Shown here: positions 1,659-12,534 of the stretch, one piece after another | Layout of the letters: each line of letters opens with the position of its first letter | Position numbering within the stretch: position 1 is the first letter of the stretch | Origin: a virus | Taxonomy: Duplodnaviria > Heunggongvirae > Uroviricota > Caudoviricetes | Reading direction: 5' to 3' (one strand) | IMG/VR virus record: IMGVR_UViG_2541047882_000005 | DNA: 27,202 bases | Position numbers and translations under genes: made by a program | The notes under the pieces: model-generated | Told to the model about the DNA's origin: nothing | The model's database searches: none | Seen by the model: the letters and a program-made list of their open reading frames with translations, nothing else

Positions 1659-3557
1659 TTAAGAATCAGCCTGACTCGGGATCAGTTTTTGCCAGATAAC
1701 TGAAACGTATTTTGCCTGGTAACGGGCGTCATCAAGTGCATTATGGCGCTCACCTTCGAATGGAATAGCCGTTCTGGCATCGAAGTCTATGGCTTTCCCC
1801 AGCTCAACGATTGTGCGTACATCGCGATCGTTGTAGTAACGCCACGGGCAGGGGATCCCCTGCCGTTCGTATGAACGGCGCAAAATCGTGTTGTCGAAGT
1901 TGGCTCCATTTCCCCAAACCTGAACAAAAAATTCACCGGAGTTTTCGTCGATAAATTCTCGCAATTGTAACAGTGCATCATCTAACGGGATTTCATCGGT
2001 CATAATGGCAGATTGCGCTTCGCGTGATTGCTTAAGCCACCATTTAATGGTGTCCCGATCAATGACTCCGCCAGCAGTTTCCAGATCGATAGTCTTACTA
2101 AATTCCGGTCCCATATCTCCGGTTTGCGGATCGAAAAATATTGCACCTATTGAGATGATCGGGGCATCAGGATTTTTTCCCATGGTTTCAAGGTCGATCA
2201 TTAGATGGTCACACGTCCTGCTGGTGGATGTGATTTCGTGATGACCGTTCACCTTAATTGGGTGATCTGCCGTCTCGCCAGTTTCATTATCGCTATTGTG
2301 ATGCTGATTGCCGCCAGTGTTCTCCTTGTGTGGATGTTCAGCGCCTTCCATTTCCTCCGGATCATCTTCCTGAACTTCAACCTGATACTCTTCATCGAAT
2401 GTTTCTTGGTATGTTGCGTCGCCCATCACCGCGCCACAATCAGGGCAGTTGCCGCCGCCGGTCTGACCGCAGGCGGTGCAGACTTTTTCCACTTCCTGTT
2501 GCGCTACTGGTTCAGGCTGTTTCGTTTCTGGCTCGTTTTGTAACGCATTTGGACTGTTTTGTTCCGCTTTTTGGTAGTTCCGTTCCGATTCATGCTGGTT
2601 CTGGTTCACAGAATCGCGGGTCTGGAGCCCCTTAACCCATTTCGGATCATTCGGGTCACTAATCCCTTCAACAAATTCACCACGTGATGCAGCAAGCAAC
2701 TTATCGGCGTCAGGCTGGCTGATATTGGCTGCCTGCATAATTTTGTTTACTTCGTCAGCGGTAACTTTTATCGGCTCTGGTTGTTCTGAATCTTCAGCGG
2801 TATCTACATTTTGCGGTAAGCCCGTGTATGTGCCATTTTTTCGGGCAAAATATTCTTCTTTTGTGATTTCAGTGGCGCCAGCAGCCAGTGCCTTATCCAG
2901 ACCAGAGAGTTTGTTTGCGCGACCGTATTTTTCTCCGTCCTTATCTGCGAAGAGGAAATAGAACGGCCCCTCACGCTCTACAGATGGTTCAGCTTCCGGC
3001 GCGGTTTCATTTTTTGGGATATCAGATACCTCAGTTTCCACTGCATCAGTTTGTGTTTCTGATGACTGGAGAACATCAACAGTGCCCAGGTCTGTTTCTT
3101 CATTCTCAAACACGCCCTTTGTCGTCAGGTATTCGCAGATATATTTGTTCAGTGCTACGGGATCTTTGTGAATGTCGATCGGACGCTCACGGACAAGGCC
3201 AAAAATAGTTTGGCGGTCGTAGCGAAGGGCATCAGGCTGTTTGCGCATTGGTGCCGAGATACGCTTCCAGTCTTCGCGGTCGTTGTCGATAACTTCTTTT
3301 TTTGCCCAGCGATGGATGCTGCCGTCAATGTTTCCGGCATCCACATCACTAGGCCAGAGAGCGTAGGCCAGTTCGTCATCCAGTGTTTTCCATGTCTGCT
3401 TGTATTCGCGATGAATGGCAGCAATGACCGGGCTGATTTTTCCTGTTGAATTTTCAGTGTACTGTTGATTGGCTCTGGCGCGGGCGAGATCAACAACAGA
3501 CGTGTATTTTCCGGTTTCCTTGCGTTCACCTTCGCGACGTTTTTTCCAGATGCGCAT
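1659..3557 (-). CDS. RecE-like exonuclease with C-terminal DnaQ-type DEDDh 3'-5' exonuclease domain
   Basis: Central region matches the RecE (exonuclease VIII) acidic/zinc-finger segment as I recall it (..LLAASRGEFVEGISDPNDPKWVKG.., ..CTACGQTGGGNCPDCGAVMGDATYQETFDEE..); C-terminus shows DEDDh motifs (MIDLETMG, GNGANFD, HNALDDARYQ). The listed ORF extends to 3692 but that start is TTG; first in-frame ATG is 3557. Confidence 0.8.
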   Translation of the reverse strand: MRIWKKRREGERKETGKYTSVVDLARARANQQYTENSTGKISPVIAAIHREYKQTWKTLDDELAYALWPSDVDAGNIDGSIHRWAKKEVIDNDREDWKRISAPMRKQPDALRYDRQTIFGLVRERPIDIHKDPVALNKYICEYLTTKGVFENEETDLGTVDVLQSSETQTDAVETEVSDIPKNETAPEAEPSVEREGPFYFLFADKDGEKYGRANKLSGLDKALAAGATEITKEEYFARKNGTYTGLPQNVDTAEDSEQPEPIKVTADEVNKIMQAANISQPDADKLLAASRGEFVEGISDPNDPKWVKGLQTRDSVNQNQHESERNYQKAEQNSPNALQNEPETKQPEPVAQQEVEKVCTACGQTGGGNCPDCGAVMGDATYQETFDEEYQVEVQEDDPEEMEGAEHPHKENTGGNQHHNSDNETGETADHPIKVNGHHEITSTSRTCDHLMIDLETMGKNPDAPIISIGAIFFDPQTGDMGPEFSKTIDLETAGGVIDRDTIKWWLKQSREAQSAIMTDEIPLDDALLQLREFIDENSGEFFVQVWGNGANFDNTILRRSYERQGIPCPWRYYNDRDVRTIVELGKAIDFDARTAIPFEGERHNALDDARYQAKYVSVIWQKLIPSQADS

Positions 3558-3615
3558 CTCTGCCTGAATTTCGGGCCATTTAGCACCAGGAATACATTTA
3601 TGCTTAACCCACCCA

Positions 3616-3882
3616 ATGGCGTGCAACTTAAGCTCCGGATACGGGTTATTCCCCTCTGAACAGGCGCGTAAGGACTGGCAAAACGCCCGCAAAAAACTCT
3701 CGAGGGCAAAGGTGAAGAAACCTGCTGTGGTTGATCCGGACCTTATCTGGTCATCACCTGACGGAGAAATACGTCGCTACGACAGTCGCCTAAACATAAT
3801 CTGTCGCGAGTGCCGGAAGAGTGAAGTTATGCAGCGCATACTGGCTTTCTATCAGGGTAATTTTCAGGACGTGGCGCAGTGA
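3616..3882 (+). CDS. Hypothetical small protein (alternative GTG start at 3715 with GAGGG SD-like sequence)
   Basis: 88-aa ORF divergent from the exonuclease; ends 4 bp into the next ORF (GTGA overlap). No recognisable motifs beyond CxxC..CxxC-like spacing (CRECRK). Confidence 0.3.
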   Translation: MACNLSSGYGLFPSEQARKDWQNARKKLSRAKVKKPAVVDPDLIWSSPDGEIRRYDSRLNIICRECRKSEVMQRILAFYQGNFQDVAQ

Positions 3883-5387: not shown

Positions 5388-5567
5388 ATGAAAAACGCAT
5401 TGCAGTTTTTGTTTGTTGCGTTCTGGTTGTTCGCATCATGTATGCCCATCATCTTCACAGCAAGGTATATGGAAAAAGTTGATGTTTTGATATTAATATT
5501 TGGATATATAAATGCCCTTTTTTTAGGGGTGTTCATGGCGGTCATGTGCATTGAATACTGGCGGTAA
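5388..5567 (+). CDS. Small two-helix membrane protein (59 aa), function unknown
   Basis: ATG at 5388 preceded by AGGAGG 5 nt upstream; two hydrophobic segments (ALQFLFVAFWLFASCMPIIF and VLILIFGYINALFLGVFMAVMCI). Confidence 0.4.
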   Translation: MKNALQFLFVAFWLFASCMPIIFTARYMEKVDVLILIFGYINALFLGVFMAVMCIEYWR

Positions 5568-5901
5568 ATACAGCGAACTCCATTGGTTTAGTTGGATATT
5601 TACTGTGCTGGACAAAAACGGTTTGCGGGGAAATCTTAGTTAAGTAGAATGACTGCGGGTGCTTGAGGCTATCTGCCTCGGGCATGGACACCAACGGCAG
5701 ATAGAGAAAAGCCCCAGTTAACATTACGCGTCCTGCAAGACGCTTAACATTAATCTGAGGCCAATTTCATGCTAGACACATGTAGGTTAGCCTCTTACGT
5801 GCCGAAAGGCACGGAGAAGCAGGCTATTGTTAACACCAAGCTGTAATGTCCCCTTTGAACCATTCTAAAATGTCCCCAGACAATTCTCTGGGGGATTTTT
5901 C

Positions 5902-7215
5902 ATGATCAAAGAGACTGTTACGATGAGTCATAAGGAACTCCACCGACTTCAGACTATTCAGGAACAAGCTGCGGCACGCATTGGCATTTCTATTCGGCAG
6001 GTTAAACGTCTGGTGCAACGGTATAGAAATGAAGGGCCTTCTGGTCTGGTTTCCCACCGACGTGGAAAGCGTCCTAATAATTCCTTTTCTACTGAATTCA
6101 GAGCAACAGTAATTTCACTCCTCAAAGGCCGTTACGCTGATTTTGGACCTACGTTTGCGTGCGAAAAATTGCGCGAGATACACGGTTTATCTTTATCCGT
6201 TGAAACTCTCAGAAAGTGGATGATAGAAGAGGGGTTATGGCGTGAACGCCGTCGTAAAATTGCCCGTATATATCAACGCCGCATGCGACGACCATCTTAC
6301 GGTGAACTGATCCAGATTGATGGCTCACCTCATGACTGGTTTGAAAATCGAGGCCCCAGATGTACACTGATCGTTTTCATTGATGATGCCACCAGTGCGT
6401 TGATGGCGTTGCGTTTTGTGCCTGCTGAAACAACCCGGGCTTACATGGAAACCCTCCGGGGTTACCTTAATGATCATGGCGTACCGCTCGCTCTCTACTC
6501 TGATAGACACAGTATATTCAGGGTAAATAACCCAGAGCGGGAAGGTGAGCTGACCCAGTTCACTCGTGCGATAAAGACACTGGGCATCGAGCCAATCCAT
6601 GCCAACAGCCCGCAGGCAAAAGGGCGGGTAGAGCGCGCCAATCAGACACTACAGGACAGGCTGGTCAAAGAAATGCGGCTTCAGAATATCAGTGATATTG
6701 AAACAGCAAATGCATGGTTGCCGACCTTTATTGAAGCCTATAACAACCGGTTCGCTACGTCGCCTCGTACTACTGATAATGCTCATCTTGATGTGCACCA
6801 TTCTGAAGAGGAACTGGGTTATATCTTCAGCCTACAGGCGAAGCGCGTTCTGTCTAAAAATCTCACTTTCCAGTACAAAAGCAGTGCGTTTCAGGTACGC
6901 AGTGAGGGCCGGGGATATCGACTTAGGCATTCGGTTGTTACTGTATGCGAGAACTTTGACGGTGAAATTAACGTTCTGTATGACGGGAAAGCGCTGGGCT
7001 GGGAAAAGTATGTTGATGGCCCGGAGCCTATACCACTGGATGATGAAAAGAGTGTCCATGAACGAGTGGATAATGCCCGTATTGATTTACGCTCAAAATA
7101 CTATGTTAAACCTAAAGCTGACCATCCCTGGCTTACGCGCCGAACGCAAAGTCATCAGCAAGTTAAGCCCCCGAAGTTACCTAAAAAGAAGCCTGATCCC
7201 GATAAAAAAGATTGA
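5902..7215 (+). CDS. DDE transposase with N-terminal HTH and integrase-core (rve) domain, IS481/ISNCY-like
   Basis: 437 aa; HTH-like GISIRQVKRLVQRY; catalytic-core motifs IQIDGSPHDW, FIDDATS, and SPQAKGRVERANQTLQ (the D,D-35-E region); GGGGA SD upstream of ATG. Confidence 0.85.
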   Translation: MIKETVTMSHKELHRLQTIQEQAAARIGISIRQVKRLVQRYRNEGPSGLVSHRRGKRPNNSFSTEFRATVISLLKGRYADFGPTFACEKLREIHGLSLSVETLRKWMIEEGLWRERRRKIARIYQRRMRRPSYGELIQIDGSPHDWFENRGPRCTLIVFIDDATSALMALRFVPAETTRAYMETLRGYLNDHGVPLALYSDRHSIFRVNNPEREGELTQFTRAIKTLGIEPIHANSPQAKGRVERANQTLQDRLVKEMRLQNISDIETANAWLPTFIEAYNNRFATSPRTTDNAHLDVHHSEEELGYIFSLQAKRVLSKNLTFQYKSSAFQVRSEGRGYRLRHSVVTVCENFDGEINVLYDGKALGWEKYVDGPEPIPLDDEKSVHERVDNARIDLRSKYYVKPKADHPWLTRRTQSHQQVKPPKLPKKKPDPDKKD

Positions 7216-7269
7216 AACCAAGATCGATTCGGTTGAGTGCATATCCATTCATAGGGTAGATTCTTAAGT

Positions 7270-7335
7270 CGCGTTTCTGGTGTTCATTTTCGGGTGGTTT
7301 GTTACTTGTTTTACCGGGGATATGCCAGAAACGCG
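7270..7335. repeat. 11-bp perfect inverted repeat CGCGTTTCTGG / CCAGAAACGCG with 44-nt spacer
   Basis: Read directly from sequence just downstream of the transposase stop. Confidence 0.5.
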
Positions 7336-7612
7336 CTGAGTCAGTCTGGGCGGTGCGCGTAATGAGGCGTTATGGTAAATAGCCTATGCTAATGTCCGCT
7401 AAGAGCAAGAAGCGGAAGTTGGCAGTTTTGTGGACTGTCCCCACAAAAGTGACTACAGAAATAGTTGCAATTCATAATTGATCATGGGTTGTCAGTTAAA
7501 CTCGTGGCGATTTAAATAGACTAATTGGGAGTGCGTCCATTACTTATATCTTGTAATGTTAACTATCAGAAATGATACAAAGATAATATGTCTTTAAAGA
7601 AAAGGCTGATGG

Positions 7613-7637
7613 CGAAAAGTGGCCCGATGAGGGCCAC
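7613..7637 (-). terminator. Rho-independent terminator downstream of flxA
   Basis: On the minus strand GTGGCCC-TCATC-GGGCCAC hairpin followed by TTTTCG. Confidence 0.4.
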
Positions 7638-7651
7638 AATACGGCTGTCAC

Positions 7652-7984
7652 TTAGACGTAAATATCAATGGTGCCAGCGGTATTTGTATCGTCTTTTTTC
7701 TCTTCTTTTTTATCAGGCTGAACTGTCGCGTCTTCATTCTTTTTCTCTGCCTGCTGCCTTAACAACTGCTCCAGTTGAGCCCAGAGGCTTTCAATTTGCT
7801 TCTGTACCAATGCAGCCATTTCTTTTTTCTGCTGTGTCGTCATCCCCTCTTCCGATGAGATTTTCCCAAGCTTTTCAGTCAGCACCTGAATTTGTCTTGT
7901 GATTTTGGCTATTTCTGATGTTCCTTCCGGGGCGGAGTTGTTTGAAATAACGGTTGAGGTATTTCCCTGAATTGTGACAGACAT
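7652..7984 (-). CDS. flxA: FlxA (FliA-regulated prophage protein)
   Basis: 110-aa ORF matching FlxA as I recall it (MSVTIQGNTSTVISNN..TIDIYV); AAGGAG SD upstream. Confidence 0.85.
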   Translation of the reverse strand: MSVTIQGNTSTVISNNSAPEGTSEIAKITRQIQVLTEKLGKISSEEGMTTQQKKEMAALVQKQIESLWAQLEQLLRQQAEKKNEDATVQPDKKEEKKDDTNTAGTIDIYV

Positions 7985-8006
7985 AGATTTCTCCTTTTAA
8001 AAAAGC

Positions 8007-8033
8007 ACTATCGGCATGCACAAAAAAATCTTT
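8007..8033 (-). promoter_or_regulatory. Sigma-28 (FliA) type promoter for flxA
   Basis: Minus strand reads TAAAGATT-N11-GCCGATAG versus consensus TAAAGTTT-N11-GCCGATAA, about 20 bp upstream of the flxA start. Confidence 0.5.
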
Positions 8034-8186
8034 AATCGTATTTCTTGTGTCATTAATTGTTTGATGTTCAGATTGTTTTCCTCGCGGGCTGGCGCGCCTC
8101 AGAAAGTAAAGCTTGTTGACAGGGGTAAACGTTCGGCAATAATTTTCTGCCGCATGCGGGTGTTGCATAAAACGTGTTACGTTCCT

Positions 8187-8492
8187 TTATCGACAGGTCA
8201 GGTCACCGCTCACCCGCCGACGAGAAAGCAACACTGACATGCTAAAGCAAAAAATAGATGAATAAGTTGAGTTGTGCATATGTAGCCTGACCGTCACAAA
8301 GTATATGGTGTCTGTACCAGTAAGATGATGGCCGGACTCTTTAAAAACGAGCTGACCTGCACAATACAGGATGGACTTAGCAATGGCTGCTCCTGGCACA
8401 AAGCGGACAGTGATCACCGTTCTTACGACTACTTTCTGACTTCCTTCGTGACTTGCCCTAAGCATGTTGTAGTGCGATACTTGTAATGACAT
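8187..8492 (-). CDS. Hypothetical protein (YdfV-like position between flxA and relB)
   Basis: 101-aa ORF divergent from relB; no motif support, positional only. Confidence 0.3.
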   Translation of the reverse strand: MSLQVSHYNMLRASHEGSQKVVVRTVITVRFVPGAAIAKSILYCAGQLVFKESGHHLTGTDTIYFVTVRLHMHNSTYSSIFCFSMSVLLSRRRVSGDLTCR

Positions 8493-8506
8493 TTGTAATT
8501 ACAAGA
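8481..8506 (+). promoter_or_regulatory. relBE operator/promoter region (palindromic RelB-RelE binding site)
   Basis: TTGTAATGACATTTGTAATTACAA contains the palindrome TTGTAATTACAA about 10 bp upstream of relB. Confidence 0.55.
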
Positions 8507-8516
8507 GGTGTAAGAC

Positions 8517-8756
8517 ATGGGTAGCATTAACCTGCGTATTGACGATGAACTTAAAGCGCGTTCTTACGCCGCGCTTGAAAAAATGGGTGTAACTCCTTCT
8601 GAAGCGCTTCGTCTCATGCTCGAGTATATCGCTGACAATGAACGCTTGCCGTTCAAACAGACACTCCTGAGTGATGAAGATGCTGAACTTGTGGAGATAG
8701 TGAAAGAACGGCTTCGTAATCCTAAGCCAGTACGTGTGACGCTGGATGAACTCTGA
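8517..8756 (+). CDS. relB: RelB antitoxin (ribbon-helix-helix)
   Basis: 79 aa, MGSINLRIDDELKARSYAALEKMGVTPSEALRLMLEYIADNERLPF..; overlaps relE start. Confidence 0.9.
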   Translation: MGSINLRIDDELKARSYAALEKMGVTPSEALRLMLEYIADNERLPFKQTLLSDEDAELVEIVKERLRNPKPVRVTLDEL

Positions 8757-9043
8757 TGGCGTATTTTCTGGATTTTGACGAGCGGGCACTAAAGGAATGG
8801 CGAAAGCTGGGCTCGACGGTACGTGAACAGTTGAAAAAGAAGCTGGTTGAAGTACTTGAGTCACCCCGGATTGAAGCAAACAAGCTCCGTGGTATGCCTG
8901 ATTGTTACAAGATTAAGCTCCGGTCTTCAGGCTATCGCCTTGTATACCAGGTTATAGACGAGAAAGTTGTCGTTTTCGTGATTTCTGTTGGGAAAAGAGA
9001 ACGCTCGGAAGTATATAGCGAGGCGGTCAAACGCATTCTCTGA
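8756..9043 (+). CDS. relE: RelE mRNA-interferase toxin
   Basis: 95 aa, MAYFLDFDERALKEWRKLGSTVREQLKKKL..; start overlaps relB stop. Confidence 0.9.
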   Translation: MAYFLDFDERALKEWRKLGSTVREQLKKKLVEVLESPRIEANKLRGMPDCYKIKLRSSGYRLVYQVIDEKVVVFVISVGKRERSEVYSEAVKRIL

Positions 9044-9114
9044 ACCAAAGCATGACATCTCTGTTTCGCACCGAAGGTGACACTTCTGCTTTGCGTTGAC
9101 AGGAGAAGCAGGCT

Positions 9115-9270
9115 ATGAAGCAGCAAAAGGCGATGTTAATCGCCCTGATCGTCATCTGTTTAACCGTCATAGTGACGGCACTGGTAACGAGGAAAGACCT
9201 CTGCGAGGTACGAATCCGAACCGGCCAGACGGAGGTCGCTGTCTTCACAGCTTACGAACCTGAGGAGTAA
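9115..9270 (+). CDS. hokD: Hok-family small membrane toxin HokD (RelF)
   Basis: 51-aa ORF found by hand (below ORF-track cutoff): MKQQKAMLIALIVICLTVIVTALVTRKDLCEVRIRTGQTEVAVFTAYEPEE; AGGAGAAG SD. Confidence 0.85.
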   Translation: MKQQKAMLIALIVICLTVIVTALVTRKDLCEVRIRTGQTEVAVFTAYEPEE

Positions 9271-9338
9271 GAGACCCGGCGGGGGAGAAATCCCTCGCCA
9301 CCTCTGATGTGGCAGGCATCCTCAACGCACCCGCACTT

Positions 9339-9366
9339 AACCCGCTTCGGCGGGTTTTTGTTTTTA
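9339..9366 (+). terminator. Rho-independent terminator after hokD
   Basis: CCCGC-TTCG-GCGGG hairpin followed by TTTTTGTTTTT. Confidence 0.5.
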
Positions 9367-9486
9367 TTTTCAACGCGTTTGAAGTTCTGGACGGTGCCGG
9401 AATAGAATCAAAAATACTTAAGTAGCGCGCAGGGATAAGAGGGATGGTCCCTTAAAGGGGAGAGCTAATTATCCGGAAGGATTCTG

Positions 9487-9738
9487 ATGATGAACATCGA
9501 AGAACTGCGTAAAATTTTTTGTGAAGATGGCCTCTATGCTGTGTGCGTTGAAAATGGAAATCTTGTTAGTCATTACCGCATTATGTGTTTGCGAAAGAAT
9601 GGGGCTGCGTTAATTAATTTTGTGGATGCTCGGGTCACGGACGGATTTATCTTGCGCGAAGGTGAGTTTGTCACTTCATTACAGGCATTGAAAGAGATCG
9701 GAATAAAAGCTGGCTTTTCTGCTTTTTCAGGAGAATAA
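9487..9738 (+). CDS. rem: Rem-like prophage protein
   Basis: 83-aa ORF, same length and position as Qin rem; GGAAGG SD. Confidence 0.7.
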   Translation: MMNIEELRKIFCEDGLYAVCVENGNLVSHYRIMCLRKNGAALINFVDARVTDGFILREGEFVTSLQALKEIGIKAGFSAFSGE

Positions 9739-9804
9739 ACTCATCTACAATCTTGCGCGGGGCTGAACTCCCGCTGAGTAACACCGTGCCACCGGAGAAA
9801 ACCG

Positions 9805-10083
9805 ATGGCACGCAACGCAAAATATTACAATTCTGATAATTCGCCCGTTCTTGCCTGCACGCACGGGCGGTATTCTCACGCATTCAAGTCTGAATGGTTC
9901 CAGCACCCTCCATGCACTGCAGAACAGGCCGAATGGCTGATTCATTCTTACCGCAGGCGCGGGTTCGAGGTTAAGAAAGCTCTCAGTCTCGACTATCGGC
10001 ACTGGATAATCTCTGTCAGGCTGCCTTATTCCGAACGCCCACCACGTCCGTCCCGCACTTTCCAGCAACGGATCTGGAGGTAA
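9805..10083 (+). CDS. Hypothetical protein, translationally coupled to ydfU
   Basis: 92-aa ORF with GGAG SD 7 nt upstream of ATG; stop TAA is 1 nt before the GTG start of the next ORF. Confidence 0.45.
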   Translation: MARNAKYYNSDNSPVLACTHGRYSHAFKSEWFQHPPCTAEQAEWLIHSYRRRGFEVKKALSLDYRHWIISVRLPYSERPPRPSRTFQQRIWR

Positions 10084-10084
10084 C

Positions 10085-11134
10085 GTGCGGGTATTACTTA
10101 GACCTGTTCTGGTGCCTGAGCTTGGGCTGGTGGTCCTTAAGCCGGGCCGTGAATCCATACAGATATTTCATAATCCTCGAGTGCTGGTGGAACCGGAACC
10201 AAAAAGCATGCGTAATCTGCCATCCGGAGTCGTTCCTGCCGTTCGCCAGCCGCTGGCGGAAGACAAAACATTGCTGCCGTTTTTTAGTAACGAACGGGTG
10301 ATTCGTGCTGCTGGCGGCGTTGGCGCATTGTCCGACTGGCTATTACGTCATGTTACATCCTGCCAGTGGCCTAATGGCGATTACCATCACACTGAAACAG
10401 TCATTCACCGTTATGGTACCGGCGCAATGGTGTTGTGCTGGCACTGCGACAACCAACTGCGTGACCAGACATCGGAATCACTGGAGCTGCTTGCTCAACA
10501 AAATCTGACAGCATGGGTGATTGACGTCATCCGTCACGCAATAAGCGGTACGCAGGAGCGGGAATTATCTTTGGCTGAATTATCCTGGTGGGCGGTCTGC
10601 AATCAGGTGGTGGATGCACTACCTGAGGCTGTATCGCGTCGTTCGCTGGGATTACCAGCGGAAAAAATCTGCTCGGTGTACCGCGAAAGCGACATCGTAC
10701 CGGGAGAGCAGACCGCCACCAGCATATTGAAACAACGCACAAAAAATCTTGCACCGTTGCCTTACGCCCACCAGCAACAAAAATCACCACAGGAAAAGAC
10801 GGTGGTAAGCATCACCGTTGATCCAGAGTCTCCGGAATCTTTCATGAAGCTGCCTAAACGTCGCCGCTGGGTTAAGGAGAAATACACACGTTGGGTTAAG
10901 ACACAGCCGTGTGCTTGCTGCGGTATGCCAGCCGACGATCCGCATCATCTGATTGGTCACGGGCAGGGCGGAATGGGAACAAAAGCACATGATCTCTTTG
11001 TGTTGCCTTTGTGCAGAAAGCATCACAACGAGCTGCATACGGATACAGTGGCATTTGAAGATAAGTATGGCTCCCAACTGGAGCTGATATTTCGTTTTAT
11101 CGATCGCGCGCTGGCAATTGGCGTACTGGCGTAA
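10085..11134 (+). CDS. ydfU: DUF968-like prophage protein with C-terminal Cys/His (HNH-like) motif
   Basis: 349 aa; C-terminus ..CACCGMPADDPHHLIGHGQGGMGTKAHDLFVLPLCRKHHNELH..; sits directly upstream of Q as in lambdoid nin regions. Confidence 0.7.
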   Translation: MRVLLRPVLVPELGLVVLKPGRESIQIFHNPRVLVEPEPKSMRNLPSGVVPAVRQPLAEDKTLLPFFSNERVIRAAGGVGALSDWLLRHVTSCQWPNGDYHHTETVIHRYGTGAMVLCWHCDNQLRDQTSESLELLAQQNLTAWVIDVIRHAISGTQERELSLAELSWWAVCNQVVDALPEAVSRRSLGLPAEKICSVYRESDIVPGEQTATSILKQRTKNLAPLPYAHQQQKSPQEKTVVSITVDPESPESFMKLPKRRRWVKEKYTRWVKTQPCACCGMPADDPHHLIGHGQGGMGTKAHDLFVLPLCRKHHNELHTDTVAFEDKYGSQLELIFRFIDRALAIGVLA

Positions 11135-11147
11135 GTGGAGAACGAGC

Positions 11148-11900
11148 ATGAACCTTGAAGCCTTACCAAAATATTACTCCCCAAAATCTCCAAAATTGAG
11201 CGATGACGCTCCAGCGACAGGCACCGGTTGTTTAACAATTACGGATGTAATGGCAGCGCAGGGGATGGTGCAGTCGAAAGCACCACTTGGGTTGGCCTTA
11301 TTTCTGGCAAAAGTTGGTGTTCAGGACCCTCAGTTTGCGATTGAAGGCCTGCTAAATTACGCGATGGCACTGGATAACCCGACATTGAACAAATTGAGTG
11401 AAGAAATCCGGTTACAGATTATTCCTTACCTCGTGAGTTTTGCCTTTGCTGATTACTCCAGGTCTGCGGCAAGTAAGGCTCGCTGTGAGCATTGTTCAGG
11501 TACGGGATTTTATAATGTATTGCGCGAAGTGGTGAAACACTACAGACGCGGGGAATCTGTAATCAAGGAAGAATGGGTGAAGGAACTATGTCAGCATTGC
11601 CATGGTAAGGGCGAAGCCAGCACAGCGTGCAGAGGGTGTAAGGGTAAAGGGATTGTTCTGGATGAAAAAAGAACCCGGTTTCATGGCGTACCGGTATATA
11701 AGATTTGTGGGCGTTGTAATGGAAACCGGTTTAGTCGTTTACCGACCACGCTGGCACGACGTCATGTCCAGAAGCTGGTACCAGACCTGACCGATTATCA
11801 GTGGTATAAGGGGTATGCGGACGTCATTGGTAAACTGGTAACAAAGTGCTGGCAGGAAGAAGCATACGCGGAAGCGCAATTGAGGAAGGTGACGAGATAA
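11148..11900 (+). CDS. quuQ: Late-gene antiterminator Q
   Basis: 250 aa from ATG 11148 (GGAG SD); Cys-rich zinc-binding region (CEHCSGTG..CQHCHGKG..CRGCKGKG), position immediately upstream of the lysis cassette. Confidence 0.8.
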   Translation: MNLEALPKYYSPKSPKLSDDAPATGTGCLTITDVMAAQGMVQSKAPLGLALFLAKVGVQDPQFAIEGLLNYAMALDNPTLNKLSEEIRLQIIPYLVSFAFADYSRSAASKARCEHCSGTGFYNVLREVVKHYRRGESVIKEEWVKELCQHCHGKGEASTACRGCKGKGIVLDEKRTRFHGVPVYKICGRCNGNRFSRLPTTLARRHVQKLVPDLTDYQWYKGYADVIGKLVTKCWQEEAYAEAQLRKVTR

Positions 11901-11931
11901 ATGATTTTTGCTGAAGATGGCGACATGATGT

Positions 11932-11960
11932 TTGCATTTTTCAAAAAATATGGATAAAAT
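11932..11960 (+). promoter_or_regulatory. Candidate late promoter pR' (sigma-70)
   Basis: TTGCAT -35, 17-bp spacer, TAAAAT -10, located 30-60 bp after the Q stop. Confidence 0.45.
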
Positions 11961-12006
11961 TTTTTCAACGATGGGCTTTGTATACCCGACGTTAAGAAAA
12001 AGTAGA

Positions 12007-12035
12007 AAACCCGCTGATGAGCGGGTTTTGTGCTT
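12007..12035 (+). terminator. tR'-like rho-independent terminator
   Basis: ACCCGC-TGATGA-GCGGGT hairpin followed by TTTTG. Confidence 0.55.
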
Positions 12036-12321
12036 TAAATGGGGCAATGGTAATGTTGAATCTCATCCCGGGACTCATGTCTGTTAACTTATTATTTAGC
12101 TGGTGACTTGGTTATTTGCCTGATGTTTAAAATGTTTTCTTCCAGTACAATGTCCCTAAACACAATGAGTCTGCTTATTATATTATTAGCAGAGCTATTA
12201 CGGCCAAAGTACAGCATAAGCTTTTAAAGCCAATCAACCAGTCATCAAGACAGACGGGGTTATTCATAAAAACTCTCCATGTGTGATCCGATGGGGCCTG
12301 AAATTAAAGCTTTAATATAGC

Positions 12322-12534
12322 TCATGAAAGGTAAACATTGGCAGCTGAAGGGCCACGCAGACCATTTATCCGGCAAAATTCCACGCGTAATCCGGTGGTA
12401 ATTTCTTCTGCATCGCGGAGATTGAGCGCTGAAACATGAAGCTGGACATCGATACGACCATCGGATGGGGTGATAAGACCCTTGCCGCTTTTGCCGTCAA
12501 AGGTTTTGACAATTCCTGTCATTTTACGGGACAA
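12322..12534 (-). CDS. cspF: Cold-shock-domain protein CspF
   Basis: 70 aa, [38 protein letters not shown].. Confidence 0.85.

Follow-up and report, generated by a model that had tools for sequence, protein, structure and literature searches.

The relBEF operon of Escherichia coli K-12, located in the Qin prophage, encodes the antitoxin RelB, the toxin RelE and the Hok-family membrane toxin HokD (RelF). On northern blots, probes for relB, relE and relF reveal one and the same full-length transcript, whose induction is lost upon deletion of the relBEF promoter (Kasari et al. 2013, PMC3598666); PMC5120126 credits co-transcription to Gotfredsen and Gerdes 1998, and overexpression of HokD is reported to be toxic (bioRxiv 10.1101/2025.08.07.668861). 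Here we analyze this operon in the virus record IMGVR_UViG_2541047882_000005, a stretch of 27,202 nucleotides (nt) that is denoted the window below, along with a predicted 3,274-bp transposon (5828-9101) that includes relB and relE and ends at the start of hokD. Very probably, a relBE-carrying transposon of the IS1202 family landed on the hokD start and cut this gene off from its own regulators.

Conventional hok/sok loci contain a Hok-family open reading frame (ORF) with a Shine-Dalgarno (SD) sequence, a 3' fold-back element (fbi) and a terminator, all of which have counterparts in hokD. In these loci, the promoter, the 5' element tac, the mok start, the Sok target and the sok gene adjoin the toxin gene, whereas here they are found 3.27 kb upstream. 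Because those parts lie across the insertion, control by antisense RNA and by coupling to mok is impossible for this hokD. In the R1 hok model, the 5' tac pairs with the 3' fbi, closing the full-length mRNA. Pedersen and Gerdes are said to have put the state of hokD down, in 1999, to a 'major genetic rearrangement'.

The closest described relative of the element is ISEsa1, a member of the IS1202 family, which was formerly called ISNCY. The transposase gene in the window is about 98% identical at the DNA level to plasmid copies that the Prokaryotic Genome Annotation Pipeline names 'IS1202-like element ISEsa1 family transposase', and the left end is the same. The ISfinder entry, as far as it is relayed by Harmer and Hall 2023 (PMC10132070), gives ISEsa1 a length of 1,609 bp, inverted repeats matching at 15/22 positions and no target duplication, whereas the element in the window comprises 3,274 bp, with 19/26 repeats, passenger genes and a 15-bp duplication. 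The inverted repeat range of the IS1202 family (PMC10132070) accommodates the 26 bp found here, and different subgroups of the family make duplications of 5-6, 15-17 or 27-28 bp (for the 15-17 class, see bioRxiv 10.1101/2022.12.17.520857). Elements of the ISAjo2/ISAba32 group target pdif/dif (XerC/D) sites in one orientation, at a short conserved site typical of plasmids (PMC10132070; bioRxiv 10.1101/2022.12.17.520857). The element analyzed here shares with this group the family and the oriented insertion at a short conserved site, but differs in the target (the hok start instead of a Xer site), in the length of the duplication (13-16 bp instead of 5-6 bp) and in carrying a toxin-antitoxin pair and variable cargo. 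Transposons of the Tn3 family reportedly carry type II toxin-antitoxin pairs, a finding that is attributed to Lima-Mendez and colleagues (2020). There, too, a type II module would ride inside a mobile unit, but the transposase belongs to another family, and in the present element relBE is positioned at the very end, reading outward into the toxin gene of the target.

No literature link between ISEsa1 or IS1202 elements and hok was found in a full-text search that did not extend to ISfinder, TnCentral and subscription journals. Targeting of the hok start is not mentioned in PMC10132070, in bioRxiv 10.1101/2022.12.17.520857, in the papers naming ISEsa1 that the search covered or in a 2026 survey of Hok loci. 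Thus, the origin of relBEF by way of a hok-targeting relBE transposon is apparently undescribed, as far as the literature was checked.

The candidate transposon and the divided hok/sok locus

The segment 5828-9101 is flanked by an exact 15-bp direct repeat, GGAGAAGCAGGCTAT, with copies at 5813-5827 and 9102-9116, which is one of only three repeated stretches of at least 15 nt in the window. The right copy holds the hokD SD sequence GGAG (9102-9105) and the AT of the ATG, and ends directly before the G of this codon. The predicted terminal inverted repeats abut the two copies: the left one (IRL, TGTTAACACCAAGCTGTAATGTCCCC, 5828-5853, plus strand) matches the reverse complement of the right one (IRR, 9076-9101, minus strand) at 19 of 26 positions, a level (at least 19/26) that is reached at only 1 of 27,176 positions in the window. 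By direct reading, the outer tip of IRR, TTGACA, provides an in-frame TGA (9097-9099) that shuts the hokD frame upstream and closes what was formerly the mok/hok frame. The same IRL adjoins the target duplication in loci L010, L016, L102, L123, L051 and others. The same IRR end, GGGGACACTTCTGCTTTGCGTTGACA, follows relE in 19 of the 38 loci from a genome-collection scan with one genome per species, and a transposase homologue in two Pseudomonadales assemblies (L030 and L036).

The transposase gene (5902-7215, plus strand) encodes an ISEsa1-type protein of 437 amino acids (aa) that is assigned to the ISNCY/IS1202 family (NCBIfam NF033594, 455 bits with a cut-off of 250); the Pfam domains HTH_29, HTH_32 and HTH_28 score above their cut-offs, and rve_3 just below. 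The features expected of an IS1202-family element are all found: a single DDE transposase of 400-500 aa, imperfect terminal repeats of about 22-29 bp, a duplication of subgroup-typical length (15 bp here, 13-16 bp elsewhere), and occurrence at several sites for which empty counterparts exist. By sequence comparison, 5828-9101 is a transposon of this family with relBE as its last cargo.

The element has the order IRL, transposase, variable cargo, relB, relE and IRR, and the hok sequence on its right side follows 58 nt after the relE stop. It consists of two conserved modules, the transposase module (5828-7420) and the relBE module (8390-9101), around the variable cargo (about 7421-8389). The cargo differs between copies, with flxA and ydfV in the window and ncrABCY, chrBA and other genes in an Enterobacter plasmid (L010, 2583-13093). 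The passenger gene flxA (7652-7984, minus strand) matches Pfam FlxA with an E-value of 2e-14. The coding status of the ydfV ORF (8187-8492, minus strand) is doubtful, since neither Pfam nor NCBIfam yields a match and the relBE promoter is encoded opposite to part of it; recurrence in other elements is limited to its first 20-39 codons, which are inside the conserved relBE module. The break between the transposase module and the cargo, near 7420-7436, is the point where the 1,609-bp ISEsa1 of ISfinder would stop. An alternative right end near 7436 was also considered, but the best inverted repeat match there is 12-14/26, which is not credible.

The missing 5' half of the hok/sok locus is retained directly upstream of the element. 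The region 5657-5827 (plus strand) corresponds to the 5' end of a hok mRNA with tac (GGGTGCTTGAGG), the mok start and the Sok target, and has the sok gene region on the opposite strand. The Rfam model RF01794 'sok' is matched over its full length at 5657-5828 (104.1 bits, gathering threshold 59, E-value 1.2e-24), and the window has a single copy of the hok 5' motif GGGTGCTTGAGGCT, at 5657. In BLAST searches, an entire hok leader was identified at 5654-5827, 85% identical to the leader of a complete hokD-type locus on a plasmid (L003) and 98% identical to that of an uninterrupted locus (L009, see below). This leader ends exactly at the insertion point, with GGAGAAGCAGGCTAT (5813-5827). The mok frame, which opens with the ATG at 5779, now extends into IRL, where it meets a stop codon at 5845-5847. 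In the uninterrupted locus, this ATG precedes that of hokD by 57 nt and shares its frame, an arrangement also seen in mokC. Both promoters of this severed half, hok and sok, are placed by homology; a consensus promoter scan with a threshold of 9 of 12 positions calls neither. A terminator-like hairpin with a T run (5873-5894) was observed just inside IRL, 8 nt before the transposase ATG, and may keep transcription that starts at the severed hok promoter from entering the transposase gene.

The complementary half is found on the right side of the element. Homology of the hokD side to complete hok loci (the plasmid locus L003 and hokC-mokC-sokC of K-12, L002) begins only at 9101, at CAGGAGAAGCAGGCTATG, and extends to about 9332, with 82% identity to K-12 hokC and 91% identity to the plasmid locus from 9101 onward. 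It includes an fbi-like 3' element, CCTCAACGCACCC (9320-9332, plus strand), which is conserved with L003 and would be the partner of the severed 5' tac, a function assigned from the R1 hok paradigm. In minimum-energy folds, this element pairs with 5657-5669 only in the reconstructed uninterrupted mRNA. Because the insertion split tac and fbi onto different transcripts, their pairing is now impossible.

The preliminary description of this operon had reported neither a sok-like antisense promoter nor a mok-like frame adjoining hokD, and four lines of evidence agree with it: an Rfam E-value scan of 7500-10500 gave no sok match, no sigma-70-like site passed the consensus scan on the minus strand of 8300-9500, homology to complete loci begins only at the element border, and the hokD frame is closed by the in-frame TGA. 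Of the attributes of a hok/sok unit, hokD has the Hok/Gef-family ORF and lacks a cis sok gene with its own promoter, an upstream mok frame and a tac/fbi pair on one mRNA. The description had held that an antisense RNA and a mok frame would make this a conventional hok/sok locus. A sok region and a mok start do exist in the window, but neither is next to hokD; as both are found only across the insertion, 3.27 kb away, the hokD locus is not a conventional unit. The severed half at 5657-5827 was overlooked in that description, as was the relBE transposon, whose right end (IRR at 9076-9101 and duplication at 9102-9116) sits within the region it covered, 8470-9366.

Empty and filled sites

To identify uninterrupted loci, 5400-5827 was joined in silico to 9117-9500 and searched against complete E. 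coli genomes. The uninterrupted hokD locus is contiguous, at about 99.3% identity, in 1,063 of the 5,426 genomes, and the left junction, consisting of the hok leader, IRL and the transposase start, is present in 677 genomes. Strain 2 HS-C (L009) has the uninterrupted locus in a Qin-like lambdoid prophage, as part of the nin region, with small nin genes on one side and rem-ydfU-Q on the other; to the left and right of the insert, the window is collinear with this locus. A second pair of filled and empty sites is provided by L016 and L006, respectively. The uninterrupted form is homologous to other hok/sok loci along its full length and thus represents the ancestral state.

The K-12 operon shares with the window the three proteins, the operator, the spacer and the terminator, but has lost the left 1.2 kb of the element, including IRL and most of the transposase, of which only 'ydfW' is left. 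The window matches MG1655 only from 7031 onward (99.96% identity over 7031-12500), and 'ydfW' corresponds in frame to the last 49 codons of the transposase (window 7031-7215, K-12 locus L001 1732-1916); hence, K-12 carries a left-truncated copy of the element, cut at window position 7031, beside a partial ydfX. The severed half of the hok/sok locus is absent from the 7.2-kb stretch of K-12 that was examined. The origin of the arrangement is therefore not visible in K-12, where IRL, most of the transposase and the severed half are gone, whereas the window keeps both the complete element and this half. Collinearity of the whole window with MG1655, and with it the idea of an insertion of dicA-dicC, was dropped because the BLAST match begins at 7031.

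A scan of three collections with the 19 outermost bases of IRR yielded 202 copies, 192 of which have the enteric-type end, with 59 distinct right flanks. A Hok ORF opens in 29 of these 59 unique flanks, with about 20 different Hok peptides represented; the Hok ATG is 12-15 nt past the element end in most flanks, 3 nt in the hokE-type and 10-13 nt in the hokA-like ones. Average pairwise identity is 97.5% for the last 150 nt of the element, compared with 75.5% for the first 170 nt of the flank. An IncHI2 plasmid (L004) shares relB, relE and the 58-nt spacer with the window at about 99% identity as far as the hok ATG, which opens a different hok. In a second complete element, on an IncFII/IncR plasmid (L010), the same IRL is preceded by an R1-type hok leader with GGAGAAGAAGGCC as its last bases. 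This element comprises the transposase, nickel and chromate resistance genes over about 10 kb, relBE and the same IRR, beyond which GGAGAAGAAGGCC recurs, with an ATG and an R1-type hok after it.

Wherever both junctions are visible, the element is flanked by a duplication of the local target. The duplication is 15 bp long for the elements of 3,274 and 3,301 bp, 15 bp (GGAGAAGAAGGCCAT) for a 6,093-bp element, 15 bp in one locus and 16 bp in another for a 4,600-bp element, 13 bp for the 12,843-bp element with nickel and chromate resistance genes, and 16 bp for a 7,694-bp element. One and the same R1-type leader was hit three separate times, by elements of 12.8, 4.6 and 7.7 kb with duplications of 13, 16 and 16 bp, respectively. 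A hokA-like target was hit as well, one genome having the halves of this target on two separate contigs. A common feature of the left flanks is the hok-leader hairpin TGCCG(N)AAGGCA (hairpin sequence TGCCGNAAGGCA), located 0-2 nt before the duplication. The remaining right flanks include tandem IRR-15 bp-IRL arrangements, an opposite-orientation junction, deletions into hokD, another IS following GGAG and a few sites other than hok.

Judging from these comparisons, elements with the same ends and different cargo are found at the same position, within 2 nt, in many hok loci of plasmids and prophages. The local duplications, the variety of hok targets and the existence of empty sites point to repeated transposition into one preferred site rather than to a single fusion followed by recombination, and recurrent site-specific insertion into hok start regions is well supported. 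Given that some copies occupy other sites, this targeting is a strong preference, not an absolute one.

Several variants of these arrangements were observed. A second size class of hokD-type insertions (L054 and others) is 3,301 bp instead of 3,274 bp long and has AAGGAG instead of ACGGAG before the duplication; in the left flank of L054, an ORF of the nin region (equivalent to window 3616-3882) directly adjoins the hok-leader hairpin, as if about 1.9 kb had been deleted. In L087, L089, L165 and L173, IRR is joined to the middle of hokD (equivalent to window 9202; right flank CTGCGAGGTACGAATCC), with the first 87 nt of the toxin gene deleted. In L051, L049, L099, L119 and related loci, another IS, with a DDE transposase on the opposite strand, is located right after GGAG(A/T) of the hok SD sequence (flank GGAG[A/T]TGTATGGGTCC), and in L051 the relBE element made a 16-bp duplication that spans GGAGA and the end of this other IS; the hok start region seems to attract more than one element. 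The tip of IRR (9096-9101) is a perfect outward -35 hexamer, TTGACA. In the tandem IRR-15 bp-IRL arrangement, found on two metagenome contigs (L117 and L125), this hexamer and TGTTAACAC of the adjoining left end would be 18 nt apart, as in promoters that form at circle junctions or between tandem copies.

The relB-relE-hokD operon and expression of hokD

According to the preliminary description, a palindromic operator precedes relB, relE and hokD, which are arranged head to tail, and a terminator follows them. All these features are present, and the published northern blots and report of co-transcription cited above bear out the single transcription unit; what the description did not recognize is that, by sequence comparison, the trio is the textbook relBEF operon of E. 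coli K-12, long annotated and published, and thus not new. The region 8300-9500 is 100% identical to K-12 MG1655, where RefSeq annotates relB, relE and hokD, and to many other strains, and relBE-hokD was found in 1,162 E. coli genomes.

The relB gene (8517-8756, plus strand) encodes a protein of 79 aa (Pfam RelB, E-value 1e-32; NCBIfam NF008412 RelB/DinJ, 133 bits) that is the same as K-12 RelB (WP_000534858.1). The relE gene (8756-9043, plus strand) encodes 95 aa (Pfam ParE_toxin, E-value 2e-13; TIGR02385 RelE/StbE), the same as K-12 RelE (WP_000323025.1), and hokD (9115-9270, plus strand) encodes 51 aa (Pfam HOK_GEF, E-value 1e-23; NCBIfam Hok family), the same as K-12 HokD (WP_000813254.1). 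As in other relBE modules, a RelB/DinJ-family gene directly precedes a gene for a toxin of the RelE/ParE superfamily and is translationally linked to it: by direct reading, the relB stop and the relE start share one base (codons at 8754-8758). The relO-type operator at 8480-8505, 12 nt before the relB ATG, consists of an inverted repeat (8480-8491 and 8494-8505) with 11 of 12 positions complementary. It overlaps the probable relBE promoter and is a putative autorepression site. The promoter, read directly from the sequence as TTGCCC, 17 nt and GATACT (8453-8481, plus strand), agrees with the consensus at 8 of 12 positions, its exact location being presumptive.

The intrinsic terminator at 9339-9366 (plus strand) has a 7-bp G+C-rich stem (9339-9356) followed by a T run; originally the terminator of the hok transcript, it now serves that of relB-relE-hokD. 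The terminator scan found one site, which equals the count in shuffled sequence; the hokD terminator is credible not by this statistic but because it is located where the hok transcript ends and is retained in the uninterrupted locus L009. Sub-threshold Rfam matches to isrK and rsmX at 9255-9360 were set aside, as they arise from hairpins of the 3' untranslated region and the terminator; that to isrK (25 bits, gathering threshold 59) covers the hokD 3' untranslated region and terminator at 9279-9360 and is based on two hairpins.

The hokD AUG region is paired with a downstream segment inside the ORF in every predicted fold, so that translation is expected to be weak; on the strength of these models, it is probably inefficient. 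In the relBEF RNA, the SD-AUG stretch has a mean unpaired probability of 0.36, compared with 0.22 in the reconstructed intact hok mRNA. As a possible substitute for tac, the IRR-derived UGCGUUGA (9092-9099) was examined. It is a perfect 8-nt complement of the fbi center (9322-9329) and pairs with it in the fold of 9044-9362, yet this pairing is absent from the fold of full-length relBEF RNA, and R1-type fbi sequences do not match it; the complementarity is probably a coincidence. The HokD ORF is intact in 93 of the 95 hokD-type copies, a proportion that is uninformative on selection because the copies are nearly identical. Codon 47 of hokD (9253-9255) is TAC in a TACG context. Farther upstream in the prophage, an ORF of 677 aa (1659-3692, minus strand) has a C-terminal part that, by eye, resembles a DnaQ-like exonuclease domain.

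Alternative origins and implications

Three other explanations of the locus were weighed. That hokD belongs to a conventional hok/sok locus whose adjoining sok and mok were overlooked is barely credible. The perfect TTGACA in the IRR tip might be taken for a promoter element, but it is on the plus strand, with no -10 box after it, and the minus strand of 8300-9500 has no promoter-like site. Similarly, a 55-codon ORF with a TTG start (9096-9263) overlaps hokD in the frame that mok has in loci of the R1 and L003 types; it was rejected as a mok remnant because mok of this hok type is in frame with hok, starting 57 nt upstream in a frame that is now shut by the TGA, and because the ORF has neither a ribosome-binding site nor a family match. 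Moreover, Rfam places the hok/sok regulatory region at 5657-5828, with nothing near hokD, and homology of the hokD side to complete loci starts at 9101. An origin without transposition appears very unlikely, whether by Campbell-type integration of a relBE circle at a 15-bp microhomology or, conversely, with the uninterrupted loci having arisen secondarily, by deletion between repeats that match by chance. Flanking direct repeats would indeed also result from a crossover at a shared 15-mer, and a deletion between repeats would recreate an apparently uninterrupted locus. Against this, the insert contains a DDE transposase typical of the family, the borders of the repeat coincide with terminal inverted repeats, and the duplicated sequence changes with each target. 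Duplications of 15-17 bp have been described for one IS1202 subgroup (bioRxiv 10.1101/2022.12.17.520857), and the homology of the uninterrupted form to other hok/sok loci along its entire length also argues against secondary deletion.

The remaining alternative, which we consider unlikely, is a single ancestral relBE-hok fusion, with the variety of hok genes stemming from later homologous recombination and the element itself having no preference for hok. The hok start regions share the motif AAGGAGAAG..ATG, a possible crossover point, and most of the sampled loci show the right junction only. In the cases with both junctions, however, each locus has its own local hok sequence duplicated flush with both inverted repeats, and three different events involve one and the same R1-type leader. 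In addition, IRR-15 bp-IRL junctions occur in tandem (L117, L125), one junction has the opposite orientation (L027), and elements without relBE near the end (L017, L031, L093) also adjoin hok.

Transposition of a relBE-carrying IS1202-family element into the hokD start thus remains the preferred explanation, and a number of observations weigh against it or against parts of it. The boundaries of ISEsa1 in ISfinder, as relayed in the source cited above, conflict with those proposed here. Both junctions were verified for only some of the hok alleles, and part of the allele diversity beside IRR could come from later recombination rather than from separate insertions. Copies are present at non-hok sites (L012/L134, L024, L014, L021 and L042), and the length of the duplication is not constant (13-16 bp). 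None of the relBE, hok and sok promoters reaches the threshold of the consensus scan; they are placed from homology and published data. The RNA folds are not robust, the IRR-fbi pairing being seen in the isolated 3' segment and absent from the full-length transcript; translation of HokD is judged here from the sequence and such predicted folds, and the transposon interpretation as a whole is drawn from sequence comparison.

Under the proposed scenario, a Qin-like lambdoid prophage would have had a conventional hok/sok locus in its nin region, and the element would have inserted where translation of hok is initiated, duplicating the 15 bp GGAGAAGCAGGCTAT, which comprise the hok SD sequence and the AT of the ATG. 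The hok promoter, tac, the mok start, the Sok target and the sok gene would have stayed on the left (5657-5827), no longer leading to the hok ORF, whereas the ORF would have kept its own copy of the ribosome-binding site, the 3' fold-back element and the terminator on the right, 58 nt after the relE stop. The relBE promoter and operator are internal to the element, the terminator scan detected no terminator between the relE stop and the element tip, and the relBE promoter therefore reads across IRR into hokD. Autorepressed by RelB/RelE, it yields the classical relB-relE-hokD (relBEF) mRNA that ends at the hok terminator; hokD transcription is under RelB/RelE control, with no antisense RNA involved, and translation would start at the SD sequence (GGAG, 9102-9105) and AUG of hokD itself, without coupling to mok. 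That hokD depends on the relBE promoter had been presumed in the preliminary description and fits the published effect of the promoter deletion (PMC3598666). Recognition of the target by the transposase, the weak translation of HokD and any selective benefit are aspects of this scenario that we infer.

The earlier observation of the operon, being textbook, adds nothing new by itself; its proposed origin would explain the "orphan" hokD in the best-studied toxin-antitoxin operon: this gene would have neither sok nor mok because a relBE transposon cut the locus at the hok start codon. The data suggest a revision of ISEsa1, in which the mobile unit ends beyond relBE, the duplication is about 15 bp, and the cargo is variable, including nickel and chromate resistance. 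They also suggest that a toxin gene characteristic of plasmids and prophages is a new example of a specific target for transposition. A mobile element, or what remains of one, encloses relBE in the window, in K-12 and in the plasmid copies that were examined, and deletion of relBE in such strains would also take away the only known promoter of the membrane toxin gene.

A broader and far more tentative possibility, which we find doubtful at present, is that ISEsa1-type elements are cargo transposons that use the hok start region as a dedicated attachment site, disarm the type I module of the host replicon, substitute their own relBE for it and keep Hok as a working third gene under RelB/RelE control, so that relBE-hok would be a selected three-part module. 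If so, these elements could land in hok loci without harm, at sites that are especially common on conjugative plasmids and prophages, and the operon would not be an accident. The insertions into hok start regions bear on the joint spread of resistance cargo and addiction modules.

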